From a virus: a DNA stretch of 44,722 bases. The stretch is taken from IMG/VR virus record IMGVR_UViG_3300045988_086091; one strand, given 5' to 3'. The position numbers and the translations under genes are program-made. Positions 28,122-44,722 of the stretch are shown here, in pieces. The notes below the pieces were generated by a model, which saw only the letters and a list, made by a program, of their open reading frames with translations, was not told the DNA's origin and searched no databases. Position 1 is the stretch's first letter. Each line of letters begins with the position of its first letter.

Positions 28122-28586
28122 TTATCCAAATAGGCTGCACTGGTCGAAGGACGGAACCTTCACCATGCCCGCCGTCTTGATGAAGCGGTCATAAGGCTGA
28201 GCCTCAATTCCATACCGGGCATACATGGTCCGGGTCTTCGGGTTGCTCTCCACAGCGTAGTAGAGGCTCCCGGTGCTCCCGTGCTTCGGGAAGATGAACC
28301 GCTGGAGGGCGCTCTCCTTGAAGACTGGGGGCTCCCCGTTGATGTCGTTGAAGTACCACTCCTGGGGCTGCCAGCCAGTCTTCCGCTTGATGTTCTCCGT
28401 GGTCTGCTTCATCTGGTAGTCCGGGCGAGCCGTCACGATGATAACATAATCATCCTTGATCGCCTCGATCAGGTCGGCCCGGTATTCCTCGGCCTCCATG
28501 CGCCGGGAGAAGGGGCGAAGCATACGGGTTGTAGCTTGGTTTCCCACAAGGGTATAGTTGAGGTCTAAAAGACAAATCCGCTTCAT
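28122..28586 (-). CDS. HAD-superfamily-like hydrolase (tentative)
   Basis: N-terminal LLDLNYTL (DxDxT-like with Asn at the second Asp position) and VTARP motif. Confidence 0.4.
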   Translation of the reverse strand: MKRICLLDLNYTLVGNQATTRMLRPFSRRMEAEEYRADLIEAIKDDYVIIVTARPDYQMKQTTENIKRKTGWQPQEWYFNDINGEPPVFKESALQRFIFPKHGSTGSLYYAVESNPKTRTMYARYGIEAQPYDRFIKTAGMVKVPSFDQCSLFG

Positions 28587-28624
28587 AGTAGGTTCTCCTT
28601 TTCGGTTGTTATTTTCGCACTATT

Positions 28625-28827: not shown

Positions 28828-29337
28828 TCACTTTATGGCTTCCGCTCCGTATAGCCAGACCGCGAGCCTTTGCACAAGCCGCTTCCGGTTCCTCCAGACG
28901 GTTGTTGTGTCGCATGGAATGAGCTCCGCCACGCGCTCATCCGGGAGATCGTCAATGTACCTGCCGGTCACGGTCAGGTAGTAGTCGTCCTTCTCGATGG
29001 TGGCAAGGGCCCGCTCCATGGCCTCGATCTCGTATTCATCCGCGGCGATGGTGGCCTCCAGGTCTATCACCGCTGCCTCGAAGATTTCCTCCGGGGTAAG
29101 CCGGACCCCCGACTTGCTGAACCGGGTAATGCTCTTGCTCCGGCCTCTGGGCCCGTACTGCTTGAGCTCTTCCAGGCGCTCCTTGTCATCATCCCGCTTA
29201 TTCCGCAGGACCGGCAGCGCGTAGAGGCGGCGCTCGGTGGCCTTGAAGGCGTCCTTGGCGGTCCTCTCCGCGGATATGCGGCCATCCTCAACGGCCTGGC
29301 GGATGATGTCTTGCGTGCTCTCTTTTGGTTTGCCCAT
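28828..29337 (-). CDS. RinA/ArpU-like late transcriptional activator (sigma-70 region-4-like HTH)
   Basis: ATG 29337 behind GGGAGG. C-terminal DERVAELIPCDTTTVWRNRKRLVQRLAVWLYG. Located upstream of the terminase block. Confidence 0.6.
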   Translation of the reverse strand: MGKPKESTQDIIRQAVEDGRISAERTAKDAFKATERRLYALPVLRNKRDDDKERLEELKQYGPRGRSKSITRFSKSGVRLTPEEIFEAAVIDLEATIAADEYEIEAMERALATIEKDDYYLTVTGRYIDDLPDERVAELIPCDTTTVWRNRKRLVQRLAVWLYGAEAIK

Positions 29338-29345
29338 TGAAATGT

Positions 29346-29402
29346 CGCCTCCCGTGTGGTAAAATAGCTTTGTCACGGGCTGTCTTCCCTTCGGGGGAGG
29401 CG
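29346..29402 (-). promoter_or_regulatory. SD-sequestering structure in the leader of the late activator gene
   Basis: 8-nt CGCCUCCC (29395-29402) is complementary to the SD region GGGAGGCG (29346-29353). An alternative pairing is CCCGUG/CACGGG. Confidence 0.35.
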
Positions 29403-29412
29403 GCTTTTCTTT

Positions 29413-29742
29413 TTACTTACCGTTTACTCCGTTGACCGCCGTCTGGAGCAGGAAGCCCAGGAGCTTCCACACCTGGTCCCTGATCTTGCCCATGCAGATG
29501 TCGCGGCCCACGGGCTCGCTGTAATTCTCCTTGCTGACACAGGCGGAGGCTTCCACGATCTCGAAGCCGTTCCGCAGCACAGCGCGGACAACGGTCGTCT
29601 TATCGCCCATGGTCTGGGTGTGGGTTTCCGCGATGAAGTCATCGACCATATTCGCCCCAATGCTGGGGGCAGAGGCCCCAAGGTCCTCGTTGACGTCCAG
29701 GGCCAGGTCGTTCAGTTGCTCGATGATCTCGTGCTTGTTCAT
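29413..29742 (-). CDS. N4 Gp49 / Sf6 gp66-family protein
   Basis: TTVVRAVLRNGFEIVEASACVSKENYSEPVGRDICMGKIRDQVWKLLGFLLQ matches the family pattern as recalled. SD GGAGG. Confidence 0.6.
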   Translation of the reverse strand: MNKHEIIEQLNDLALDVNEDLGASAPSIGANMVDDFIAETHTQTMGDKTTVVRAVLRNGFEIVEASACVSKENYSEPVGRDICMGKIRDQVWKLLGFLLQTAVNGVNGK

Positions 29743-34654: not shown

Positions 34655-35350
34655 TTAGCGCCTTCGGCGCATTTCTTCGTAGTCCATGGCGTCGTCTACG
34701 GTTTTAATGCCACGGGCCCTAAAATTATCATAGATACCGCCTATATACCCCCAATGCAGTTTCCCTTGAGTGCGGGCCTGATCGAAGGCGTATGCAAGAA
34801 GCTCCTTCTTTTCCTCCGGGAAGGTCATGGTCCATTGACCGTCCTCGTGGTGCGTCTGCTCCTTGATGTAGTAAAAGACCTTCCGCACATCGTCCGGCGT
34901 CGGGTTCTGCTTCGGGTAAAACTCCAGCCACAGCTTCTCGGTGATCTCCCGGAGCTCCTGGCCCAGGGCCTCGGTATAGCCGAAATAGGTCGTGATGTCG
35001 TCCTTGACCTCTCCCAGGAAGTCTTCGTCCTCCGGCGGCCCTGGGGGTATGTACGGGCCCTCCAGGGCGTCCACGGAGTTCATGTGGTAGGTGCTGGGCT
35101 TCCCCTTGACGCCGGGGGTGAAGGCGATGAGGCCGGCCTCCACAAGCTCCTTTCGAGCGTCAAGCGCCATCCCCTTTGACCTGGTGTTAATCATTTCCAT
35201 CACCCTTTTGTTATCGAGCTGGAAATCGTCCGGCCATCTAAGCACATTCGCAAGGTCCATGAGCTTGTACCATAGGAGCTGAGCGTTTGTGGAGAGAGGG
35301 GCCCGCCGCATACGCCGGGCGAAGGCGTTGATCTCTCGCAAGTAGTTCAA
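34655..35350 (-). CDS. DnaD-like replication initiation/replisome organizer protein
   Basis: TTG start behind AAGGAGG. C-terminal WGYIGGIYDNFRARGIKTVDDAM motif. Confidence 0.6.
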   Translation of the reverse strand: MNYLREINAFARRMRRAPLSTNAQLLWYKLMDLANVLRWPDDFQLDNKRVMEMINTRSKGMALDARKELVEAGLIAFTPGVKGKPSTYHMNSVDALEGPYIPPGPPEDEDFLGEVKDDITTYFGYTEALGQELREITEKLWLEFYPKQNPTPDDVRKVFYYIKEQTHHEDGQWTMTFPEEKKELLAYAFDQARTQGKLHWGYIGGIYDNFRARGIKTVDDAMDYEEMRRRR

Positions 35351-35401
35351 CGGGCGGGCCCTCCTTTCCGTAGGTATTCGGGGCCGCCCGGCCCCTGGGT
35401 C

Positions 35402-38400
35402 TTATTCTATCGCCACGACGCTGCCGTCTTCTCCGGCGGTCACGACGATATTCTGGTTGAACCGTGCCTTCATGGTCGGGTCGTGAGAGATTGCCAGGAT
35501 ACGCATATTCGGGTTGCGGGTCGCCATGTTCAGCAGCGCGTCGGCATAGGCGTCCGTTCCGTCGGCGTCCAGGAAGGGGGGCTCGTCGATGAACAGCATT
35601 CCGAGCTGCACGCCCGCCCGGCGGGCCTTGACGTCCGCCAGGCCCAGGGTAACGGCCAGCGCGATCTTGACCTTCTCGCCGCCGCTATGGCTCTGGTAGG
35701 GTCGTGTTCCACCGGCCAGGGTGTTTATCCAGACCTCCAGGCTGTTGACGATCTGCTTCGTGGACTTCTGCTCCCGCTCGGTGCGGATGTCCACGGCCAT
35801 GCGCCCGCCGGTCATGGCAGCCAGAATATCGTTGCTCTGGCGCATGATCTCCGGCACGACGCCCCGGATTATCATGTACTGGATACCATCGAGGCCGAAC
35901 GCCTGGACCAGCGTCGTGTAGTCGTTGAGGGAGGCGGCGGCCTCTTCCACTTCCCGCCGGAGCTGGGCGGTCTGGACCTCCGCCTCGGAGATCGCGTCCA
36001 GTTTCGCCTTGATGGTGCCGCGCCGTGTGGCGCGGTCGGTTACTTTCTTCCGGCGGCTGTTCAGTATGGCCCGGAGCCCTTCTGGGTTCCCCTGGGCCTT
36101 CGGGGCCCGCTGCCTGATTTCCTCGGCCTCCTGGTGTGCGGCGAGGACCTTGTTTGTCAAATCGTCGATCTCGGAGCGCAGCCGCTCAAGCTGGGGAGCC
36201 AGGGCGTCGGCGGTGGCCCCTGCCGCCTGACAGTCTGCCAGGTGCGCCGCGATGGGCTCTTCAATCTCGATGGTCTGCTGGGCCCTCTGGTACTCCATAA
36301 CCGCCAGCCCCAGGGCCGCCCGCTCGGCGTCGATCTCCAAGGACCGCTTCTCGGCGTCCTGGATGGTCTTCTCTGCCGCCTGGATGGAGGCGGCAATCTC
36401 TTCCACCTTCGCCTCTGCGGCAGCCAGGCGCGGGGTCTGGTCGGCCAGCTCCCGGTGCTTTCGCTCTTCGCGGTCCAGCTCAGAGAGCTCCGCCGCCGGG
36501 TCGCCCATGGCCTCGTCGGCGGCCTTGGCCTCGTTGTAGACCTTCATCAAGTCCTCATACCGTTGCCGGTCCTCCGCCTTGGTCTGCTCCAGAACCGAGG
36601 ACAGGTCAGGGATGGCGGCATGGGCGGCAATGGCGGACGTCAGGAATTTACAGGTAGCCTCTCCAGGGATGGGGCAACCGCTGTCGGCCAGCTTCTCCGC
36701 TTCCGCCTGGGCAGCCTTCAACCGGCTTTGCAGGTCGGCGATCCTCACGCGGCTGTCTGCCACGTGCTGATCGACCGCAGCCTTCGCCTCGTTCATGGCC
36801 TTCTCGGTTTCATAGGCCCTCATCAGGCGGGCGTGGGCGTCCTCCTTCCGGGCCACCAGGGCCTCAATCGCAGCCTGGGCGACCTCGATCTCCGCCTTCC
36901 TGGAGAGGATGGCTTCATACTGCCGCTGCTTCCACCGCAGGTCCACCAGGTCAGCTTCCGCGCTGCCGATGGCTTTCTCCAGGCGAGCCTTCTCCTTCAA
37001 GAGCTCCTTGTCCCGCTCCACCTGGGGGGCGAGTTCCTGGAGCTTTGCCCTGGCAGCAGCAAGCCTCTCGGTGGCCTCTTGGGCGGCGCTCAGGCCGTTT
37101 TTCATGTGGAGGGCATTGGAGTATTTCAGCTCCAGTTCTTCGCGCTCCTGGGCCTTCCGGTCCCTTTCGCGGTCATATTCCAGGCTTTGGGCCTCCTTCT
37201 CGCTGGCCTGCCGAAGTACCTCCTTGAGTAGGGCCTCGGCGCTCTCCAGGGCGCGGAGGTCCGCTTCTCCGACCTCGATCTCGTGGTTGAGCTGGTCGAT
37301 CTCTTCGGAGAGCACCATGTCGTTGTCCAGCAGATCGTCCTTCGCGCTGATCTGCTCCCCCAGGACGTTGATACGTTCCTTGAGGGCGGCGATCTTCCGG
37401 CGCTGCTCCGTGGCCGCTGCCTTGGCGATGTCCTCCATGCGCCCGTAGATGTCCAGGCCCAGGAGGGCGGACAGGACCTCCATCCGCCGGTCGCTGTCGG
37501 CGTCCAGGAAGAGGCCGTAGGCGTCCTGGCGGATAAGGGCGATGGAGCAGAAGGTATTGCAGTCCATGCCGAGCAGCCGCTCGATCTTCGCCTGGGTCAG
37601 CTTCATGGTGGTATCGCTTTCATCGGCCCACGCCTGGGCGTCCTGATTCCACCGCTGGAGGGCCAGGGTGCCGCGCCCGCTCTTCGTGCGGGTGCGAATG
37701 ACCCGGTAGTCCTGGCCGCCCATGCCGAACGTGAAGGAGATACTGCCGCTTTTGGTTCCGTCCCGGACCCAGCCGCCGATGTCCTCCTTGCGGGTCTGCT
37801 CATAGAGGCAATCCGCGATGGCGTCCATGAAGAGCGAGGACTTCCCGACGCCGTTCTGGCCGTTCACCATAGCCATGTGGACCGGCTCGAAGTCAAAGGA
37901 CGCCTCCGTGTAGCTCCGGTAGTTCTTCACCTCGATCACCTTCGGCATGAAGGCGCCGGTGTGCTTGCTGTCCTCGCGCCCATCGTCGGCCTGCTTGATG
38001 ATCGGAGCCGCCAGCTCCAGCAGCCGCGCTGCCTTCTCGCCGGTGATCTCGTTGGTGTCCAGCCAGCGGGCCAGGCACTCAGCCGGGCCGTCGTGCTCCG
38101 TGAGCTGGTCTTTGGCGTCCAGGGCCTCCACGTCCTCCGGGAATATCTCAGCCACATGGAAGGCACCGGCGGCGACAATCTGCTTCTGGAGCTCGGCACG
38201 GTTGAAGGCTTTCTCCTGTTCCGCCGTGCAGCTATACCGCACGCGGATGATACGGCCCTCCAGGTTGGCCGGCATACGGAAGGAGCCGGTGGAGATGAAG
38301 TCCGCGACCTGTTGGGAGTTCAAGCGGACCGTCAGGTGCTCCCGCTCCGGGGTTCGCTTGAAGGTGCTTACCACCCTGCCCTGGTCTATCTCGTGAATGT

Positions 38401-39184
38401 AGAAGCCGTGCTCCGTGCCCTCATCGTTGAAGGTGAGCTGGTTCGGGCTCCCGCAGTAATAGGCAGGCGTGTTGCAGGCGAGGCGCTGGGGCTTGTGGAT
38501 ATGTCCGAAACAGCCCAGGGTCACGCCCGCGGCGTCGATGGTGGCCGGAAGGACCACCACGTCCTGACCGGCCAGGAAGGTGCTGCCGTTGTCCGCCTCG
38601 CTCCCGCTGACCGTGTAGTGGGCCGTCAGGATGGAGGGGATACTCCGGTCAAGCTCCGTACTCAGGCCCAGAATGATGTCGTTGACAAGGGCGGTCGCGT
38701 TCCGGTTCTCGGTTTCCTTGTCCGCCCCAGGGCAGAAGAGGCGCAGCCGGGCTTTGTCGAAGCCGGGCACGGCCATGATCTGGACCGGGCCGCCGCCGGT
38801 GGAGATCGTTTCCACCTTTGGCTCGGTGTAGATGTGCAGGTTCTTGAGGTCTGCCGTCGCCTTGCGGATGACCTCGAAGGCGCGGGGGTTATCATGGTTC
38901 ATCGTCCCGAACAGCAGCACCACCGCGCCGCTGCACTTGCAGATAGGCCGGATGAACTGCTCCAGGGCGTCGTTGACGTCATCCAGGGCGGTGTCCGCCC
39001 ATACGCGGGACCTATTGAACAGGTCGCCCGCGATGATCGTCACGTCCGGCTCCGCGAGAAATGCCTCGTGATAGACGGCCTCCATACACCGCAGGGTGTC
39101 CAGGCGGCGCAGATTCTCGCCGTCCTTGGTGGGCCCGGCCAGATCGCCCAGGTGAATGTCGCCGGTGTGCAGTATCTTAATCAT
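35402..39184 (-). CDS. Fused SbcD/Mre11-like nuclease and SbcC/Rad50-like ATPase
   Basis: ATG 39184 behind GGAGG. N-terminal ILHTGDIHLGD...GHIH phosphoesterase motifs, Walker A GQNGVGKSS, a long coiled coil, signature SGGEK and Walker B LFIDEP. Confidence 0.8.
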   Translation of the reverse strand: MIKILHTGDIHLGDLAGPTKDGENLRRLDTLRCMEAVYHEAFLAEPDVTIIAGDLFNRSRVWADTALDDVNDALEQFIRPICKCSGAVVLLFGTMNHDNPRAFEVIRKATADLKNLHIYTEPKVETISTGGGPVQIMAVPGFDKARLRLFCPGADKETENRNATALVNDIILGLSTELDRSIPSILTAHYTVSGSEADNGSTFLAGQDVVVLPATIDAAGVTLGCFGHIHKPQRLACNTPAYYCGSPNQLTFNDEGTEHGFYIHEIDQGRVVSTFKRTPEREHLTVRLNSQQVADFISTGSFRMPANLEGRIIRVRYSCTAEQEKAFNRAELQKQIVAAGAFHVAEIFPEDVEALDAKDQLTEHDGPAECLARWLDTNEITGEKAARLLELAAPIIKQADDGREDSKHTGAFMPKVIEVKNYRSYTEASFDFEPVHMAMVNGQNGVGKSSLFMDAIADCLYEQTRKEDIGGWVRDGTKSGSISFTFGMGGQDYRVIRTRTKSGRGTLALQRWNQDAQAWADESDTTMKLTQAKIERLLGMDCNTFCSIALIRQDAYGLFLDADSDRRMEVLSALLGLDIYGRMEDIAKAAATEQRRKIAALKERINVLGEQISAKDDLLDNDMVLSEEIDQLNHEIEVGEADLRALESAEALLKEVLRQASEKEAQSLEYDRERDRKAQEREELELKYSNALHMKNGLSAAQEATERLAAARAKLQELAPQVERDKELLKEKARLEKAIGSAEADLVDLRWKQRQYEAILSRKAEIEVAQAAIEALVARKEDAHARLMRAYETEKAMNEAKAAVDQHVADSRVRIADLQSRLKAAQAEAEKLADSGCPIPGEATCKFLTSAIAAHAAIPDLSSVLEQTKAEDRQRYEDLMKVYNEAKAADEAMGDPAAELSELDREERKHRELADQTPRLAAAEAKVEEIAASIQAAEKTIQDAEKRSLEIDAERAALGLAVMEYQRAQQTIEIEEPIAAHLADCQAAGATADALAPQLERLRSEIDDLTNKVLAAHQEAEEIRQRAPKAQGNPEGLRAILNSRRKKVTDRATRRGTIKAKLDAISEAEVQTAQLRREVEEAAASLNDYTTLVQAFGLDGIQYMIIRGVVPEIMRQSNDILAAMTGGRMAVDIRTEREQKSTKQIVNSLEVWINTLAGGTRPYQSHSGGEKVKIALAVTLGLADVKARRAGVQLGMLFIDEPPFLDADGTDAYADALLNMATRNPNMRILAISHDPTMKARFNQNIVVTAGEDGSVVAIE

Positions 39185-39317
39185 GGCCTTTCGCCTCCTC
39201 ATCCTCTCGTTTCTGTGCCCTTGCACCGTCAAGATAGGCCGCCCAATAGCGGGCGTCATCAAGGTTGATGCCGCTCTCTTCCTCCAGCCGCTTTTCCGCG
39301 AACTCAATAACCGTCAT
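39177..39317 (-). CDS. 46-aa acidic hypothetical protein (below the ORF-track cutoff)
   Basis: ATGA-coupled to the SSAP stop. Its TAA overlaps the SbcDC start (ATGATTAA). Confidence 0.45.
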   Translation of the reverse strand: MTVIEFAEKRLEEESGINLDDARYWAAYLDGARAQKREDEEAKGHD

Positions 39318-40369
39318 CTCCGCGCTCCTTTCATCTTCTCCTGGCACTCAGGGCAGAGGACGCGGCCATAGGTCCGCTGGCTGTATCCGGCGATGTCCTC
39401 CGGCGTCCACTTCCTGCCGCTCCGGGCCTGCCCGCCGGTGATCTGCCGGTGGCAGTCGGAACAGTAGATACCCTGGGGAGGCTCCGGGGCCTCCGGGGGT
39501 TCCTCCCAGGCCGGCGGTCCGTTGTACTGAGGCTCACGGCTCCAGCTATCTTCCGGCTCTTCCGGGGCCTCCGGCCAGGGCATTTGCCCCGGTGCCTCAT
39601 CGTCATAGGGCGGAATTACTTCGGCCTCCTGGGCGGTAGGCAGGGCCGCCGGTGCCGCGTGCCCAGGCATTTCAAACAGCATTCCCATGGACTGGAGGTA
39701 GCTGCTGGCGACCGCCTGCTTGATCTCCGGCGCGTCCAGGTTGGGGACCACACGCGCCACCACAAACGGCTTTTTGAGGTCTTCAAGGGAGTATGTACCG
39801 GCAAGACCCAGGGCGGCCCGGATGGCCCGCATGAAGGCTTTACTTTCCGCCATAGCGGTTCTGTGGGGTAGGAAGCGCCGGTACTGCTGCCCGTTGATAC
39901 CGTCCTTCATGCCGGAGGCTTCCAGGGTGCAGTCGATTTCCTTCGTGGCCTTCATCATGCGGAAGCCCCCGGAGGGCTCCGGCACTCGAATGGTAACGGT
40001 TACGGCGACGTCGTGGACGTGCTCGCAGTTGCCGCACACCCTCGGCTTCCCGGTGGCCCGCGCCATTTCAATGCACCGCTGGCAGCCCTCAGTCCGTCCG
40101 GGCTGGGTGTCCACAATGCTGATGTTGGCAGCCGCGGCCAGCTTCATCCCGGCCACCTTCGTGATGGCGAATGCGCCGCTGGACCGCTCAAAATAGATGT
40201 CCTTGCTCGGCCCGTGGTTGGAGCTGTCCTGCCTGGTGTCGAGCTGAACCTCGGAAACGGTGATCCGCTGGAGGTTGGACGCCACCTGCATAGTGGTGAC
40301 AGGCACCAGCACGTTATACCTGTCGGTGGGGTACTTATTGAGCTGGACAATGGTCTGACTTAAATCCAT
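39314..40369 (-). CDS. Putative single-strand annealing protein (Rad52/ERF-like) with two zinc-ribbon motifs
   Basis: ATG 40369 behind AAAGGAG. AESKAFMRAIRAALGLAGTY resembles the SSAP core. CQRC..CGNC and CSDC..CPEC motifs. Adjacent to the nuclease gene. Confidence 0.45.
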   Translation of the reverse strand: MDLSQTIVQLNKYPTDRYNVLVPVTTMQVASNLQRITVSEVQLDTRQDSSNHGPSKDIYFERSSGAFAITKVAGMKLAAAANISIVDTQPGRTEGCQRCIEMARATGKPRVCGNCEHVHDVAVTVTIRVPEPSGGFRMMKATKEIDCTLEASGMKDGINGQQYRRFLPHRTAMAESKAFMRAIRAALGLAGTYSLEDLKKPFVVARVVPNLDAPEIKQAVASSYLQSMGMLFEMPGHAAPAALPTAQEAEVIPPYDDEAPGQMPWPEAPEEPEDSWSREPQYNGPPAWEEPPEAPEPPQGIYCSDCHRQITGGQARSGRKWTPEDIAGYSQRTYGRVLCPECQEKMKGARR

Positions 40370-40386
40370 GATGATCTCCTTTCGAC

Positions 40387-40416
40387 TTGACACAGCCGGG
40401 TGGAGAGTGCTATAAT
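40387..40416 (+). promoter_or_regulatory. Near-consensus sigma-70 promoter on the + strand (antisense to the early operon)
   Basis: TTGACA (40387-40392), 18-nt spacer, TGCTATAAT (40408-40416). Confidence 0.55.
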
Positions 40417-40422
40417 ACTAAC

Positions 40423-40487
40423 AGTAGGTTAGCTATTTTCGCACTTGGCCGCTTCCCGTTGCACCGGGGGCGGCCTTTCCCTTTCCC
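40423..40487 (+). ncRNA. Candidate oop-like antisense RNA
   Basis: Starts downstream of the promoter at 40387-40416. Contains a 6+4-bp hairpin (40447-40475) with a UUGCAC loop, followed by CUUUCCCUUUCCC. Antisense to the 3' end of gene 40433-40933. Confidence 0.35.
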
Positions 40488-40933
40488 AGGCCAATCAACA
40501 TAATGTCCGTGATACTCTCTTCCAGCTTCCGTAGGAACACGAGCACGTCCTCGAAGTCCTGGCGCTCATCCTGGGAGATCACGCCGTCGAAGGCGATCTC
40601 TTCCAGGCGGTCCGCTACGGCCTGCCCATCCCCCAGTAGGCGGCTCACCCGCAGGGTGGCATGAGGGAGAGGACGGTCCGTGGCCGTCCTCCCGGTGGCC
40701 TTGCCTACCGGGCAGGTGGCGCAGTAGCGTGGGAGAATGTCGGGGCTTTTGTAGCACTCCGCGTAGACCATGACGTCTTCCGGCTCCATTTCGACGTCCC
40801 CGCGCTCATGCCGGCCTATCGTTTCTGGGGAGAACGGAACCGCCGTTGACGCCGTTTCCCTATTTGCATATCCGGCCCTGATACGTGCCTCCCTCAGATA
40901 TGAGGGAGGTATCTTTTTTATCGTTGCAGACAT
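40433..40933 (-). CDS. XRE-family HTH regulator
   Basis: N-terminal LREARIRAGYANRETASTAVPFSPETIGRHERG. Ends with TAG inside repeat copy A. Confidence 0.6.
   Translation of the reverse strand: MSATIKKIPPSYLREARIRAGYANRETASTAVPFSPETIGRHERGDVEMEPEDVMVYAECYKSPDILPRYCATCPVGKATGRTATDRPLPHATLRVSRLLGDGQAVADRLEEIAFDGVISQDERQDFEDVLVFLRKLEESITDIMLIGLGKGKAAPGATGSGQVRK
40447..40475 (-). promoter_or_regulatory. GUGCAA-loop hairpin, copy A
   Basis: Outer stem GGCCGC/GCGGCC, inner stem CCCG/CGGG, loop GUGCAA. Followed by GGCCAAGUGCGAAAAUAG. Confidence 0.6.
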
Positions 40934-40965
40934 TCAGGTCATCTCCTTTCTGGGGTATAATTTAA

Positions 40966-41330
40966 TCAGCAGATAGGAGCGATCTGCTCAATCCGGCGGG
41001 CCGCGCGGAACGCATTGTCGGTAAGCTGCCGCTGCCACGCCCCTTGAGAAGGGGCCCACCGGAAGCCCTCGCTCTTGAGCTCCGCCCGGAGATCGGCGTC
41101 CGGCTTGCCGTCGAAGATGATCTGGAGCCGGTTCTCATCGGTGTTCACGACCACCTGCCCCCCGTCAAACTCCCAGCCCTCCGGGGCCGGTTCCGTCTGG
41201 CGCTCGGCCAGGGCGGCAGCGCGACCGCCTTCCGATAGGAGGCGGTCGCGCTGCCCTCCTTGTAGTCGGAAAAACTGTTCATGTTCTTCGCCCGGCGGGC
41301 GGCGTCTTTGTTGATGGGATAGTAGGTCAT
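40966..41330 (-). pseudogene. Gene split across two frames (N-terminal MTYYPINKDAARRAKNMNSFSDYKEGSATASYRKAV; C-terminal NRLQIIFDGKPDADLRAELKSEGFRWAPSQGAWQRQL)
   Basis: ORFs 41145-41330 and 40966-41154 overlap out of frame. The second frame is open upstream back to about 41235. Confidence 0.4.
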
Positions 41331-41352
41331 GTTATTTTCTCCTTTCAGTTGC

Positions 41353-41745
41353 TCAGACGGTTGCACCCGCCATCTTTCGAGGTTCCACTCTTTTCCCGAT
41401 GAAGCAGTTGCCGCAGTAGTACCACAGGCCGTCGCGCTGGGAGAAGGTGGTATAGGTGGGCCTCCAATGCCCGGTGTCCGGGTCGTACTGGTGGCTGACC
41501 GGCTCCCCGCACTGGACCAGCGTCGCGGAGTTCGTGGCCGGAGGCAGGACGTTGAGGAAGTTCTCGACGATCTCATCCGTCACGAGGTCCCCAGGGCGGG
41601 CGGCCTTCTCGAAGTCACCGGCGCGGCGCCAGTCGTCCATCGTTATGATCTTGCGCTCCGCTGCTCCAGCCTCTTCCCTCCGGCAGTCGCAGACTTCGCA
41701 CGGGTCAAGGGCTGCTCCGCAGTAGTCGCAGAAGTAGTTGTGCAT
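41353..41745 (-). CDS. Hypothetical protein with N-terminal zinc-ribbon motif
   Basis: ATG behind GGAAAGGAGAG. Contains CDYCGAALDPCEVCDC. Confidence 0.55.
   Translation of the reverse strand: MHNYFCDYCGAALDPCEVCDCRREEAGAAERKIITMDDWRRAGDFEKAARPGDLVTDEIVENFLNVLPPATNSATLVQCGEPVSHQYDPDTGHWRPTYTTFSQRDGLWYYCGNCFIGKRVEPRKMAGATV
41356..41371 (-). promoter_or_regulatory. GUGCAA-loop hairpin, copy D
   Basis: Stem GGCGG/CCGUC with a G-U pair on the - strand only. Spans the stop codon of 41353-41745, about 25 nt upstream of ATG 41330. Confidence 0.5.
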
Positions 41746-41975
41746 TTCGTTCTCTCCTTTCCCTGGGTCGTCCAGGTCTTGAGCTCCCAGCCGCAGAACA
41801 CCAGAATGAAGGCGTAGGCCGGGATACAGAAAGCTCCGGCGTTCTCAATCTGGAGCTGTATCATGTCGATCATCAGCAGGACCAGGCGGGCGGTCACCAT
41901 GGCGGCCAGGGCCAGCAGCGCCATTCGGTAGTAGCTCCGAACATAGGCGCGAGTTCTCTTTCGCTTTCTCTCCAT
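41643..41975 (-). CDS. Two-TM membrane protein
   Basis: ATG behind AGGAGG. The hydrophobic helices are followed by a tail that overlaps the next gene by 103 nt. Confidence 0.5.
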   Translation of the reverse strand: MERKRKRTRAYVRSYYRMALLALAAMVTARLVLLMIDMIQLQIENAGAFCIPAYAFILVFCGWELKTWTTQGKERTKCTTTSATTAEQPLTRAKSATAGGKRLEQRSARS

Positions 41976-41984
41976 GATGTCCTC

Positions 41985-42209
41985 CTATGCCCGCTTGCGG
42001 GCGGCAGTTTCCGGCTCTTCCAGGCCGTACCGCTCGTTGAAGTATCGCTTGATGACGCGCCCTTCGCAGGTGCATTTCCCCTTGGCTTCCAGCTCCCGGT
42101 TGAGCGAGGCGATCACCTTGTAGCTCTTCGATCTGGAGTAGCCCAGCAGGCGCATGATGTCCTCCACGAAGTAGAACATATCGCGGGAGGTCTTCAAGGT
42201 CGCCGCCAT
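41985..42209 (-). CDS. Small HTH DNA-binding protein (excisionase/MerR-like fold)
   Basis: FYFVEDIMRLLGYSRSKSYKVIASLNRELEAKG...RVIKRYFNERYG. Confidence 0.55.
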   Translation of the reverse strand: MAATLKTSRDMFYFVEDIMRLLGYSRSKSYKVIASLNRELEAKGKCTCEGRVIKRYFNERYGLEEPETAARKRA

Positions 42210-42212
42210 AGG

Positions 42213-42419
42213 TCACGCCTCCTTCCGGGAAAAGTTCTCCATGAACTCGCGGACCACGGGAATGAGCTGGTGCCCAGCGCAGCGCCCGGTGGTCGTTTCG
42301 ACCAGGGTCGTGTACTTCACACCGGACCGCTCGGCCAGTTCCTTGACCGTCATGCCGTTTTGAGCGGTGAACACGCGGACCTCAATGCCGAAATCCGTCT
42401 TAGGCTTGCGAATTGCCAT
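42213..42419 (-). CDS. Cro-like XRE HTH protein
   Basis: 68 aa. Contains NGMTVKELAERSGVKYTTLVE. SD AGGAGG. Confidence 0.6.
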   Translation of the reverse strand: MAIRKPKTDFGIEVRVFTAQNGMTVKELAERSGVKYTTLVETTTGRCAGHQLIPVVREFMENFSRKEA

Positions 42420-42687
42420 AGTCGTTTCCTCCTTCTTGATTTCCTTGTTTTTGAGGCATTTTCGTGTTATACTGGAATTGGTTCCAGGTGACGCGGTGCG
42501 GGACGAAGGTAAATTCGGCCTGTACCGGGTCGCAGGGCTCGCCGGTGCGGAAGGTCCCGTTGTCGATGAGGACGTGGGTTCCGACGATCCCGTAGTCGTC
42601 GGTCTTGCTCACGTCGATGCGGATGGTGGGGTACTGCTTGAAGTTGATCGCCTTGGCGATCTCGGTTCTGGTTTCGAGGAATTTCAT
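42400..42687 (-). CDS. Hypothetical 95-aa protein
   Basis: ATG 42687 behind AAAGGAG, preceded by hairpin copy B. Confidence 0.55.
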   Translation of the reverse strand: MKFLETRTEIAKAINFKQYPTIRIDVSKTDDYGIVGTHVLIDNGTFRTGEPCDPVQAEFTFVPHRVTWNQFQYNTKMPQKQGNQEGGNDYGNSQA

Positions 42688-42709
42688 GGTTAGCTCCTTT
42701 CGCATTTGG

Positions 42710-42727
42710 CCGCCGTTGCACCGGCGG
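42710..42727 (-). promoter_or_regulatory. GUGCAA-loop hairpin, copy B
   Basis: Stem CCGCCG/CGGCGG, loop GUGCAA, then GGCCAAAUGCGAAAGGAG. Lies 22 nt upstream of ATG 42687. Confidence 0.6.
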
Positions 42728-42728
42728 G

Positions 42729-42937
42729 TCACTTCCGATTGTGGATTTCTTCGAGCTCGTCGAGGGTCGCCATATCGCCTCCAGGGCGTCGATCATGTTC
42801 TGCAATCCGTCGGCCAGCTTCTTTGCCTCAGGATGGGCCCCGGCCCCTTCCAGGGCCTTGTCCTGCATTTGGCGGTATTCGTTGATCTTGGATTGCACGC
42901 CCTCACGGGCGTACATCAGGATTTTCAAGTAGGTCAT
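42729..42937 (-). CDS. Small helical hypothetical protein; the natural end appears to need a frame change
   Basis: ATG 42937 is ATGA-coupled. The frame as given runs on to 42467 across two genes. An alternative frame ends MATLDELEEIHNRK* at 42729, just before hairpin B. Confidence 0.35.
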
Positions 42938-43407
42938 CCGATCTCACCCCCTCCAGCCGTGGCAGCGTTGATATACTCGAACATATCGAAGTAGTGCTCC
43001 CTGGTGAGCTCGTTCCGCATATCGTAGAGCTGTTCCCGGAGCAGTTTCCGGGCCACCTCTTTCGAGGTCATCATGCCGATCACGCAGTCCACATAGCTGT
43101 ACGTGAATTTCTCGCCCTTCATCTCTTCCCGGACGTCAATCCACTGGACGCCCTTGTAGACCTTCCCGGTAAATCGGGTGATGATTTCGTCGATCTCCGC
43201 TTCCTGCTGCCGGATACTGTCATTGACCGCGCAGCGGACGAAGGTGTTTTCCATGCCGCTGTCCCGCATTGCCTCGCAAGCGCCGATAAGCTGCTGGTAG
43301 CAGTTGAAGGCGATCCGGCGGTCATCGCTCTGCTTCTCGAAGTCAGGCATGAACTCGGCATATTTCCGGGAGATCAGGTCGGCCTTCTGTTCGTAGTGGT
43401 TCATCAT
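42934..43407 (-). CDS. First early-operon protein (hypothetical, 157 aa)
   Basis: ATGATG at 43402-43407 behind AAAGGAG, preceded by hairpin copy C. Confidence 0.6.
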   Translation of the reverse strand: MMNHYEQKADLISRKYAEFMPDFEKQSDDRRIAFNCYQQLIGACEAMRDSGMENTFVRCAVNDSIRQQEAEIDEIITRFTGKVYKGVQWIDVREEMKGEKFTYSYVDCVIGMMTSKEVARKLLREQLYDMRNELTREHYFDMFEYINAATAGGGEIG

Positions 43408-43431
43408 GGTAGGTAGCTCCTTTCGCACCTG

Positions 43432-43447
43432 GCCGGTTGCACCCGGC
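43432..43447 (-). promoter_or_regulatory. GUGCAA-loop hairpin, copy C
   Basis: Stem GCCGG/CCGGC, loop GUGCAA, then CCAGGUGCGAAAGGAG. Lies 24 nt upstream of ATG 43407. Confidence 0.6.
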
Positions 43448-43807
43448 GATCTGGTTCCCCCTCCCGCTCTCACTTGTGCGGTAACTTCCGTTCATCCTAT
43501 GCGTACTCGGCCGGTCTTCACGGCTCATCCAGGTCCTCCGAATTTACGGCTCCACGCTGTTTCCGCTTTCTACCCGGCGAATACTTGATCGGCTATTCCT
43601 TGGCCCCCCTGCCAGCTTCTTTTTGGGCGGGTCACTCCGGGCGGTGTTCAGTTGTCGGGGTTTCTTGAGAAGGTGGGCTGGAGGTTGCCGTTCGTACCGC
43701 CGTTACCGCCTGCCGATCATCCCCGGAGCTTGCTCCGCTTCCGACCCGGCTTCCACTGCCGCTTCCTGTTTTATCCTCCGGCCCGCCTGGGCCTTTCCTT
43801 TTAACTG

Positions 43808-43837
43808 TTTACCTTATTTCTTCGGCCTGATTATATT
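43808..43837 (+). promoter_or_regulatory. Candidate repressor promoter, back-to-back with the early promoter
   Basis: TTTACC, 18-nt spacer, TATATT. Its -10 overlaps the -10 of the - strand promoter. Confidence 0.3.
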
Positions 43838-43863
43838 ATACTCCTCGAACACACGGAAGTCAA
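43835..43863 (-). promoter_or_regulatory. Early lytic promoter (PR-like)
   Basis: On the - strand: TTGACT (43858-43863), 17-nt spacer, TATAAT (43835-43840). Confidence 0.6.
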
Positions 43864-43873
43864 GTATATCTTC

Positions 43874-43904
43874 AAATAATTCCAGTCGAAAACTGGAATT
43901 ATTT
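43874..43904. promoter_or_regulatory. Perfect 13-bp inverted repeat AAATAATTCCAGT-N5-ACTGGAATTATTT (operator or leader attenuator)
   Basis: Lies between the early promoter -35 and the SD of the repressor gene. On the + strand it runs into TTTTT. Confidence 0.6.
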
Positions 43905-43918
43905 TTGGAGGTTTTTCC

Positions 43919-44560
43919 ATGGATTCAAGTGAACACGCCCGTTTAATAGCGAATAGAATAACCGAGCTTTCCTCTATTCGAGGAATTTCCATAAACCGTA
44001 TGCTGTCGGTAGCAGGTCTAAACAAATCGGTCGTAGATCGAATGAAAACCGGGAATATGCCTTCTGCTGATAAGCTCGCAGCTATTGCACAAGTTCTGGA
44101 CGTCCCCACCGAGTACCTTCTCGGAAGCGGCGTGTTTGAGAAATGGGACCTGCTGCTCCGGCAGAAGCCGGCGGTTCTAAGAGCCATAGTCGGGATGATG
44201 GAGGACTTGTCAAAGGCCCTGCCCTCCGGCACAGATGACCTATCCTTCGCAAAGCTCGTCAGCATTTTCAAAGTCGATCTGGAGGAAGGCAGCGATCCAG
44301 CGGGAACCGAGATACTGGTGATCTCACCCATCCCCACCTACGACACCCCGGAACCGGGCGGCTCTGAGGCTGCCCGTCTGGAGATAGAAAAAGCGCCCGC
44401 CCCGGAAATCTCCGAGAACGGGCGGGAAATGCTGGACCTATACGAGCGCCTTTCTGAGCGCGAGCAGCTTCTCTTGCTGGGGCGGCTCCAGGAGATGGTC
44501 GCCCCCATGCTCGGCGAAGGTAAAGGGGCTCCGCAATCCTCCGCCGGGAAGGCCGTGTGA
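43919..44560 (+). CDS. XRE-family repressor (cI-like)
   Basis: N-terminal HTH LIANRITELSSIRGISINRMLSVAGLNKSVVDRMKTG. Divergent from the early operon. SD GGAGG. Confidence 0.7.
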   Translation: MDSSEHARLIANRITELSSIRGISINRMLSVAGLNKSVVDRMKTGNMPSADKLAAIAQVLDVPTEYLLGSGVFEKWDLLLRQKPAVLRAIVGMMEDLSKALPSGTDDLSFAKLVSIFKVDLEEGSDPAGTEILVISPIPTYDTPEPGGSEAARLEIEKAPAPEISENGREMLDLYERLSEREQLLLLGRLQEMVAPMLGEGKGAPQSSAGKAV

Positions 44561-44636: not shown

Positions 44637-44722
44637 AAAATAGGGTCCGTATATGGACCTTATCAAAGAAAATAGGGTCCGTATATGGACCTTATCAAAG
44701 AAAATAGGGTCCGTATATGGAC
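44637..44722. repeat. Same 32-bp repeat family: two full units plus 22 nt of a third at the window end
   Basis: Units start at 44637, 44669 and 44701. 44669-44722 equals 1-54. Confidence 0.95.

Follow-up and report, generated by a model that had tools for sequence, protein, structure and literature searches.

A candidate oop-like antisense small-RNA gene convergent with an early regulator gene in prophages of Oscillospiraceae

Antisense RNAs of temperate phages and the setting of the locus

To our knowledge, nearly all of the regulatory RNAs described in temperate phages come from a few phages that infect enteric bacteria. In phage P22, the sar RNA is transcribed antisense within arc-ant and covers the ribosome-binding site of the downstream gene ant. 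The immunity RNAs of P4 (CI) and of P1 and P7 (c4) are processed from sense transcripts, and the repeated sites that they target are conserved parts of these systems. The short oop RNA of lambda originates from a promoter just past cII and ends at a terminator inside that gene, overlapping 52 nt of its 3' end, with RNase III-dependent cleavage of both the RNA and its target (PMC5869508).

We analyzed a locus with comparable anatomy in the IMG/VR virus record IMGVR_UViG_3300045988_086091. The window (the whole stretch of DNA that was analyzed, 44,722 nucleotides) is an apparently complete temperate phage genome of ~44.7 kb and ~60% G+C, with nearly all of its genes on the minus strand and with repeats at its termini that match each other. 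The genes that frame the locus are as follows:

43919-44560, plus strand: repressor-like gene, divergent from the early minus-strand promoter
40433-40933, minus strand: gene for an XRE-family transcriptional regulator of 166 aa (phrog_6499, E 1e-39), the proposed cis target
39314-40369, minus strand: downstream gene, 351 aa (phrog_13782), first gene of the recombination/replication block; the complement of its SD lies at 40376-40382
35402-39307: SbcCD-like fusion, in the same recombination/replication block
34655-35350: DnaD-domain protein, in the same block

The promoter of the early operon (TTGACT-17-TATAAT, 43863-43835, minus strand) matches the consensus at 11 of 12 positions and is the second-best promoter in the window. 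Between it and the first early gene lies an untranslated leader of ~420 nt (43408-43828, minus strand). Two plus-strand terminator-like hairpins in this leader, at 43600-43625 and 43777-43803, would shield the repressor gene and a promoter-like site (43808-43837) from antisense transcripts of the early region.

The XRE gene and the gene that follows it are separated by a gap of 63 nt, which holds the antisense promoter. The phrog_6499 profile covers only residues 11-150 of the XRE protein, leaving its C-terminal tail outside, and the match of the protein to HTH_31 is weak.

As in lambda oop, a dedicated promoter (here predicted) directed against the early operon lies in the gap between an early regulator gene and the replication and recombination genes that follow it. 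In both cases a short RNA (here also predicted) stops at an intrinsic terminator located within the last part of the regulator gene; the predicted RNA overlaps the XRE coding sequence by about 50 nt, close to the lambda value, plus a few intergenic bases. The original prediction, which was made from the sequence of this DNA alone, named oop as the analogue, and the geometry does equal that of pO-oop-tO, with the likeness of the XRE gene to cII being positional only. The two differ in that the target here is a 166-aa XRE-family protein rather than a CII homologue and the host a Gram-positive Oscillospiraceae bacterium.

Rfam searches, at gathering thresholds over the whole window and at E <= 10 over 40300-41000, returned nothing relevant, and neither 39300-43900 nor 40377-40500 had a DNA match among 50,697 GenBank phage records. 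We therefore speak of a unit that may work like oop, not of oop itself. The only regulator homologue from a cultured phage is that of Faecalibacterium phage FP_Brigit (28% identity), encoded directly after a cro-like gene; the corresponding gap in FP_Brigit was searched for the antisense module, which was not found, and contains a small sense ORF instead.

The sar RNA of P22 is likewise a small phage RNA with an intercistronic promoter opposite to the operon and a terminator at its end. In contrast to sar, the predicted RNA starts about 50 nt before the start of the downstream gene (~40 nt from its SD), runs away from it and covers the end of the upstream gene. Taken together, the locus is best read as belonging to a candidate new RNA family, absent from Rfam, that would work like lambda oop.

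The antisense promoter and its terminators

The elements of the putative antisense unit, all on the plus strand, are listed below:

40387-40392, plus strand: TTGACA, the -35 hexamer of antisense promoter P_as1; the SD complement of the downstream gene is 4 nt away
40408-40416, plus strand: extended -10 element TGCTATAAT of P_as1, 18-nt spacer from the -35, TG extension present
40423-40446, plus strand: predicted 5' single-stranded tail of the small RNA, from its predicted fold
40447-40475, plus strand: terminator hairpin T1, GGCCGCUUCCCG-UUGCAC-CGGGGGCGGCC, loop at 40459-40464, within the last ~14 XRE codons
40476-40487, plus strand: U/C-rich tract UUUCCCUUUCCC after T1, weak in the window
40885-40922, plus strand: second antisense terminator T2, GCCUCCCUCA-GAUA-UGAGGGAGG then CUUUUUUAUC, inside XRE codons 5-16
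40955-40960, plus strand: P_as2, TATAAT, a conserved hexamer that resembles a -10 in antisense orientation; the SD complement of the XRE gene is 2-6 nt away

P_as1 matches the promoter consensus at 12 of 12 positions with the TG extension in addition, and it is the sole 12/12 match in the 44.7-kb window. The TTGACA-18-TGCTATAAT promoter that had been claimed for the plus strand is present as described (40387-40416), and it points against both flanking genes (40433-40933 and 39314-40369), which lie on the minus strand. Also upheld was the view that no credible plus-strand ORF follows: a 38-aa ORF at 40387 begins within the -35 hexamer, and the remaining ORFs have no SD. A small peptide encoded by the antisense RNA was considered and rejected, as there is no SD and the sole start is a TTG within the hairpin.

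Relatives were retrieved with the downstream protein (46 viral loci and nine bacterial genomes) and with the regulator (80 viral loci); their bacterial hosts include Pseudoflavonifractor, Flavonifractor, Caproicibacter and other Oscillospiraceae/Clostridia. One family member, L047, is a prophage of Pseudoflavonifractor sp. Marseille-P3106 (LT827125.1, 338426-347454). Of the 54 distinct XRE-family loci, with XRE proteins of 38-100% identity, about 53 carry an antisense TTGAC(A/G/T)-17/18-(TGn)TAnnnT just beyond the XRE stop codon. A strict pattern search matched 43 of these loci, and inspection of the misses added all but one; by chance, the pattern is expected about 0.004 times per 80-nt window. 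In an alignment of 16 lineages, cTTGAC does not vary, nor do three bases of the -10 (T, A and final T), and the G of the TG extension hardly varies. The spacer, of 17 or 18 nt, retains almost no sequence in common. The predicted RNA start falls 2-21 nt past the XRE stop codon in the relatives, and the distance from the -35 to the downstream SD is 2-10 nt in all lineages.

Several loci retain the module beside the XRE gene despite carrying a different downstream gene (L070, L071, L124, L136, L137 and others), and the module therefore belongs with the XRE regulator gene. Scans of 5 kb in three relatives returned the antisense promoter as the best promoter-like match and the T1 and T2 hairpins among the best terminator-like matches. 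A pattern scan of viral contigs for the promoter together with the tail motif (below) recovered two more family members (L074 and L095) and three AT-rich chance matches.

The 17-nt promoter spacer takes the form of a covarying palindrome in three lineages, namely CGGGCTGCTGCCCG, CGGGGAAAGCCCCG and CGGGCCGAGGCCCG (L024/L025, L030 and L031; in L030 at ~603-616, for example). On the sense mRNA, these palindromes form a hairpin just 5' of the downstream gene's SD; alternatively, they could be operators.

From the position of the -10, the RNA would start near 40423/40424, about 10 nt beyond the XRE stop. Its tail is complementary to the XRE stop codon (40433-40435) and the final codons, and contains a motif, GGTTAGTTATTT(T/C)C, that is kept in many lineages. 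T1 follows, with a predicted energy of about -21 kcal/mol; the hairpin with a UUGCAC loop that had been proposed is thus found at 40447-40475, followed by UUUCCCUUUCCC as the U/C-rich tract.

Among the relatives, five of the ten T1 pairs show compensatory changes, giving a covariation score that none of 500 shuffles reached. The alignment also contains about 22 U-G cells, which would turn into C-A mismatches in a sense-strand hairpin. In all 16 lineages, the RNA of the antisense strand has the greater stability, with a mean difference of 3.1 kcal/mol. In the window itself, T1 has equal stability on both strands (-21.4 versus -21.1). Canonical U-runs are found 3' of T1 in relatives such as L034 (UCUUUUUUUG; GGCGGCUCUUUUUUUG) and L039 (UUUUUUCG). 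The short (~60-nt) form of the RNA may be minor in this phage, because its T1 U-tract is poor and its hairpin is equally stable on both strands. The amino acids of the XRE C-terminal tail change wherever the T1 sequence changes (for example in L013). Since the XRE tail varies with the hairpin and lies outside the family profile, selection acts on the RNA and not on the peptide.

T2, a strong terminator that was absent from the original prediction, is conserved in most lineages with an XRE identity of at least 57%. Four of its ten pairs are compensatory through synonymous or near-synonymous codon changes (0/500 shuffles reach the score): Pro-Pro-Ser/Ala/Leu-Glu codons pair with Leu-Arg-Glu codons that use AGG, CGG or CGA. 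The A-run on the sense strand is built from AAA Lys codons, in a phage with an AAG bias of 84%. A readthrough RNA ending at T2 would be ~500 nt long and antisense to the entire regulator gene. As the T1 U-tract is weak in this phage, a substantial fraction of transcripts may read through to T2.

At the position of P_as2, about 56 of 57 distinct related loci have TAnnAT, often preceded by TGn. We found no good -35 for P_as2 and no consistent terminator downstream of it in the relatives, and it may be a weak or activator-dependent antisense promoter. The idea that P_as2 is an analogue of lambda P_RE, reading to the repressor gene at 43919, was considered and is not supported: two plus-strand terminator-like sites and the separate promoter-like site (43808-43837) intervene, and the relatives show no consistent terminator or product after P_as2.

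At the level of sequence comparison, then, the promoter, its spacing, the hairpins and the U-tracts are shown to be conserved and strand-specific, and the unit is shown to be linked to the regulator gene.

Proposed action in cis

We consider it fairly probable that the site is a self-contained, cis-acting, oop-like antisense small-RNA gene. The anatomy matches that of lambda pO-oop-tO and for this reason favors a cis-acting antisense unit. The part of the original prediction that proposed an oop-like antisense RNA held up well, in that promoter, spacing, hairpin and U-tract are conserved across ~54 loci, the hairpin covaries and the unit travels with the XRE gene; its extension to targets in trans did not fare as well (see the next section). 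From this anatomy we infer that the RNA is synthesized, where exactly it begins and ends, and that it affects the regulator.

The near-consensus promoter (40387-40416, plus strand), of the kind used by the housekeeping sigma factor, would fire against the early operon. Transcription would start near 40423 and cross the XRE stop codon and the last ~16 codons of the gene, with most transcripts predicted to end at T1 and its U/C tract (about 40483) as an RNA of roughly 60 nt; polymerases that read through would be stopped at T2 (40885-40922), leaving the ~500-nt form. The RNA would act in cis on the early polycistronic message by pairing with the intercistronic junction and the 3'-terminal part of the regulator mRNA. 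Such pairing may promote cleavage of the duplex or its decay, and head-on transcriptional interference could add to the effect. The outcome would be limited expression of the regulator, of the downstream recombination/replication genes, or of both, or else their uncoupling. The sequence fits RNA pairing and transcriptional interference alike. A purely cis-acting antisense RNA does not explain the conservation of the tail motif GGUUAGUUAUUUYC.

A type I toxin-antitoxin antisense RNA was also considered and rejected: the sole ORF overlapped is that of the 166-aa regulator, and there is no small hydrophobic toxin ORF.

The placement of a backstop terminator at the 5' end of the target gene (T2), conserved in this group, has no counterpart that we know of in oop. 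A second antisense promoter-terminator cassette, not mentioned in the original prediction, was found elsewhere in the window:

29337-29416, plus strand: second antisense cassette with promoter TTGAAA-17-TGGTAAAAT, a ~12-nt tail and then a strong G-U-rich terminator
29377-29406 plus UUCUUUUUAC, plus strand: terminator of this cassette

The cassette lies at the early-late boundary, directly before a regulator/activator-like gene (28828-29337, minus strand; phrog_36/248), with its -35 overlapping the start codon of that gene and its spacer overlapping the SD. It is conserved with compensatory changes down to 67% identity (L160-L164). A search of the window for further plus-strand promoter-terminator pairs returned only this cassette, together with a plus-strand hairpin at 34658 that has no promoter. 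Antisense promoter-terminator cassettes may thus be a general regulatory device of this phage group, as suggested by the two, perhaps three, in this genome. The cassette and P_as2 favor mechanisms that act in cis, whether by antisense pairing or by collision.

If the cis-acting reading is right, a deeply conserved oop-like antisense RNA gene, defined by sequence comparison alone, would be shared by a large set of uncultured prophages from Oscillospiraceae of the human gut (Flavonifractor, Pseudoflavonifractor, Caproicibacter and relatives). It suggests that an arrangement in which a small-RNA gene converges on the end of an early regulator gene arose, or persisted, far outside the lambdoid phages. 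The family is a candidate for RNA databases, and its intergenic -10 box and two terminators would provide an easily mutable handle on the circuitry of lysis/lysogeny or timing.

Complementary leaders and alternative readings

Several early genes of the window are preceded by leaders that resemble the complement of the predicted RNA:

42688-42727, minus strand: copy B, a hairpin (42710-42727, loop GUGCAA) plus the SD/start region of the gene starting at 42687
43408-43447, minus strand: copy C, a hairpin (43432-43447, loop GUGCAA) together with the SD region of the early gene that comes first (start 43407)
41331-41371, minus strand: copy E, a hairpin (41356-41371, loop GUGCAA) 5' of the SD of the gene starting at 41330; duplex -26.5
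28587-28620, minus strand: partial copy D, with GTGCGAAAATA and AACCTACT on either side of the SD that belongs to the gene with its start at 28586; duplex -24.8

The original prediction had claimed that 40427-40452 matches 42688-42713 at 23 of 26 positions and shares words with 28587-28620, and both claims are borne out, the words being AGTAGGTT and ATTTTCGCAC. Its claim of complementarity to the leaders of genes 42400-42687 and 28122-28586 and, in part, of 42934-43407 agrees with duplex predictions of -40.4, -24.8 and -44.0 kcal/mol, respectively. The strongest two, formed by the 5' 30 nt of the RNA with the leaders at 42687 and 43407, reach from the SD to the start codon; the background over the whole minus strand is -15.8 +/- 4.2. 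Leader complementarity in this window is far beyond chance. Copy E, which the original prediction did not list, has an orthologous hairpin in L043 and L016. Copy D has no hairpin and lies downstream of a minus-strand TGGTATAAT promoter.

Four sense-strand hairpins have the exact loop GUGCAA, the complement of the RNA loop UUGCAC, on stems that differ. More generally, GUGCAA-loop hairpins with covarying stems of 4-6 bp occur ~10 nt 5' of the SD of several early genes, and hairpins of this type are also seen in relatives (L016 at ~2245-2260, L043 at ~2467-2484 and L023 at ~350-365, where the loop is GGGCAA). These hairpins may themselves be protein-binding, processing or mRNA-stabilizing elements.

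Short motifs immediately 5' of the start codons of a subset of genes are also found in Cluster K mycobacteriophages as start-associated sequences. They resemble the GUGCAA hairpin and GAAAGGAG-CTAACC leaders of this phage but differ in sequence and host, and a hairpin is present here. We know of no description that links the Cluster K sequences to an antisense RNA.

These matches raise an alternative in which the RNA acts in trans: its tail would anneal to the leaders at 42687 and 43407 over their SD/start regions and, with less strength, to those at 41330 and 28586, and its UUGCAC loop would kiss the GUGCAA loops. We regard such a model as unlikely, and equally unlikely its expected outcome, a block to the translation of several early genes in the manner of P4 CI or P1 c4. 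It draws on the strength of the two best duplexes relative to background and on the GUGCAA loop that is common to four hairpins and exactly complementary to the RNA loop, and it would account for the conservation of the tail. The model resembles P4 CI and P1 c4 in that the RNA is complementary to two or three repeated operon sites, including ribosome-binding regions. The resemblance ends there, as the RNA would be made from an antisense promoter of its own, and a sister phage (L038) with the same RNA lacks the repeats.

Conservation of the putative trans targets was examined by comparison among relatives. BLAST searches with the sense copy against each relative locus found a significant paralogue in the window only, and duplex scans over whole loci likewise gave outliers in the window only. 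The outcome was mixed when the duplex scans were restricted to leaders and compared with shuffled tails in 14 lineages: some leader of the same locus favored the RNA tail over shuffled tails in nine of the 14 (p <= 0.063; eight of them at p <= 0.017), with a matching leader sequence that differs by lineage (ATAACTAACC, ATAACCTATG or AAATAACCATG). Against this, the remaining five of the 14 lineages show no matching leader, the best-matching leaders sit at non-orthologous genes, and lineages with a different RNA loop have no matching hairpins. Most tellingly, copies B, C and E are all missing from the sister phage L038, which carries the same RNA tail next to a different upstream module, and none of its leaders is complementary to the tail (p = 0.83); this comparison rejects conservation of the trans targets.

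The reach to paralogous leaders in the original prediction is real as sequence complementarity, and did not stand as a conserved function. The similarity is explained equally by shared junction cassettes (SD, stop codon and start) homogenized via recombination between mosaic modules, and the spread of such cassettes by recombination appears to be a better account of the leaders than a conserved function in trans. Should the RNA be synthesized, it would still be physically plausible for it to pair with leaders B and C of this phage. A fuller version, in which the antisense RNA is a multi-target repressor whose loop docks on the GUGCAA hairpins by kissing and whose 5' tail then zips across the ribosome-binding sites, strikes us as rather unlikely. 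Were it true, one constitutive RNA of ~60 nt would act in cis on the regulator and in trans on lineage-specific early leaders, forming a layer of RNA-based immunity or timing, with its targets redrawn at each exchange of early-gene modules.

In another alternative, the RNA is incidental and the promoter facing the operon holds polymerase beside the downstream ribosome-binding region, so that head-on collision or promoter occlusion attenuates readthrough from the early promoter into the recombination/replication genes. The position of the -35 within 2-10 nt of the downstream SD in all lineages is consistent with such a roadblock, as are the two tandem terminators, which confine antisense transcription to the XRE gene. 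The cassette at 29337-29416 points in the same direction, with its -35 over a start codon, its spacer over an SD and a predicted RNA of only ~45 nt that is almost all terminator. Collision leaves unexplained, however, why the module is linked to the XRE gene and not to the downstream gene, and why the RNA tail is conserved. As the whole explanation we find it quite improbable; it is compatible with RNA pairing, and lambda oop shows RNA-mediated effects in trans when supplied from plasmids (PMC5869508).

That there is no functional unit at all, and that a chance AT-rich promoter-like patch lies beside a hairpin serving the sense mRNA as an intercistronic stabilizer or processing site, is scarcely credible: T1 in the window is indeed as stable on the sense strand, belongs to the set of GUGCAA hairpins 5' of other early genes and is followed by a poor U-tract, but about 54 lineages, in which the flanking sequence diverges, preserve the hexamers, the length of the spacer and the TG extension at each position, and the U-runs and U-G pairs are on the antisense strand.

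The cis-acting, oop-like unit thus remains our preferred reading of the site. Several further features of the genome were observed in passing. A mosaic breakpoint lies at ~41186: L038 (IMGVR_UViG_3300045988_133877) is 98.6% identical to the window over 35317-41186, and upstream of this point it is unrelated or only 76% identical. A 32-nt repeat with the palindrome GGTCCGTATATGGACC (AAAATAGGGTCCGTATATGGACC...) occurs five or six times across the window ends (1-118 and 44637-44722), beside the gene at 166-1407 and the repressor-like gene. Possible roles for this repeat are those of operators, arm-type sites or iterons, and the window appears to be circularly permuted or terminally redundant.

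Within the early operon, the minus-strand ORF 42467-42937 overlaps gene 42400-42687 by 220 nt, and its Arg/Pro-rich tail seems to be out of frame. An alternative frame over this ORF reads ...MATLDELEEIHNRK and ends at a TGA just before hairpin B, suggesting a frameshift or sequencing error near 42770-42790. The adjacent short minus-strand ORFs 41145-41330 and 40966-41154 match positions 2-37 and 243-301, respectively, of the 306-position "primase" family phrog_19458, and are probably one gene that has been internally deleted or split by a frameshift.
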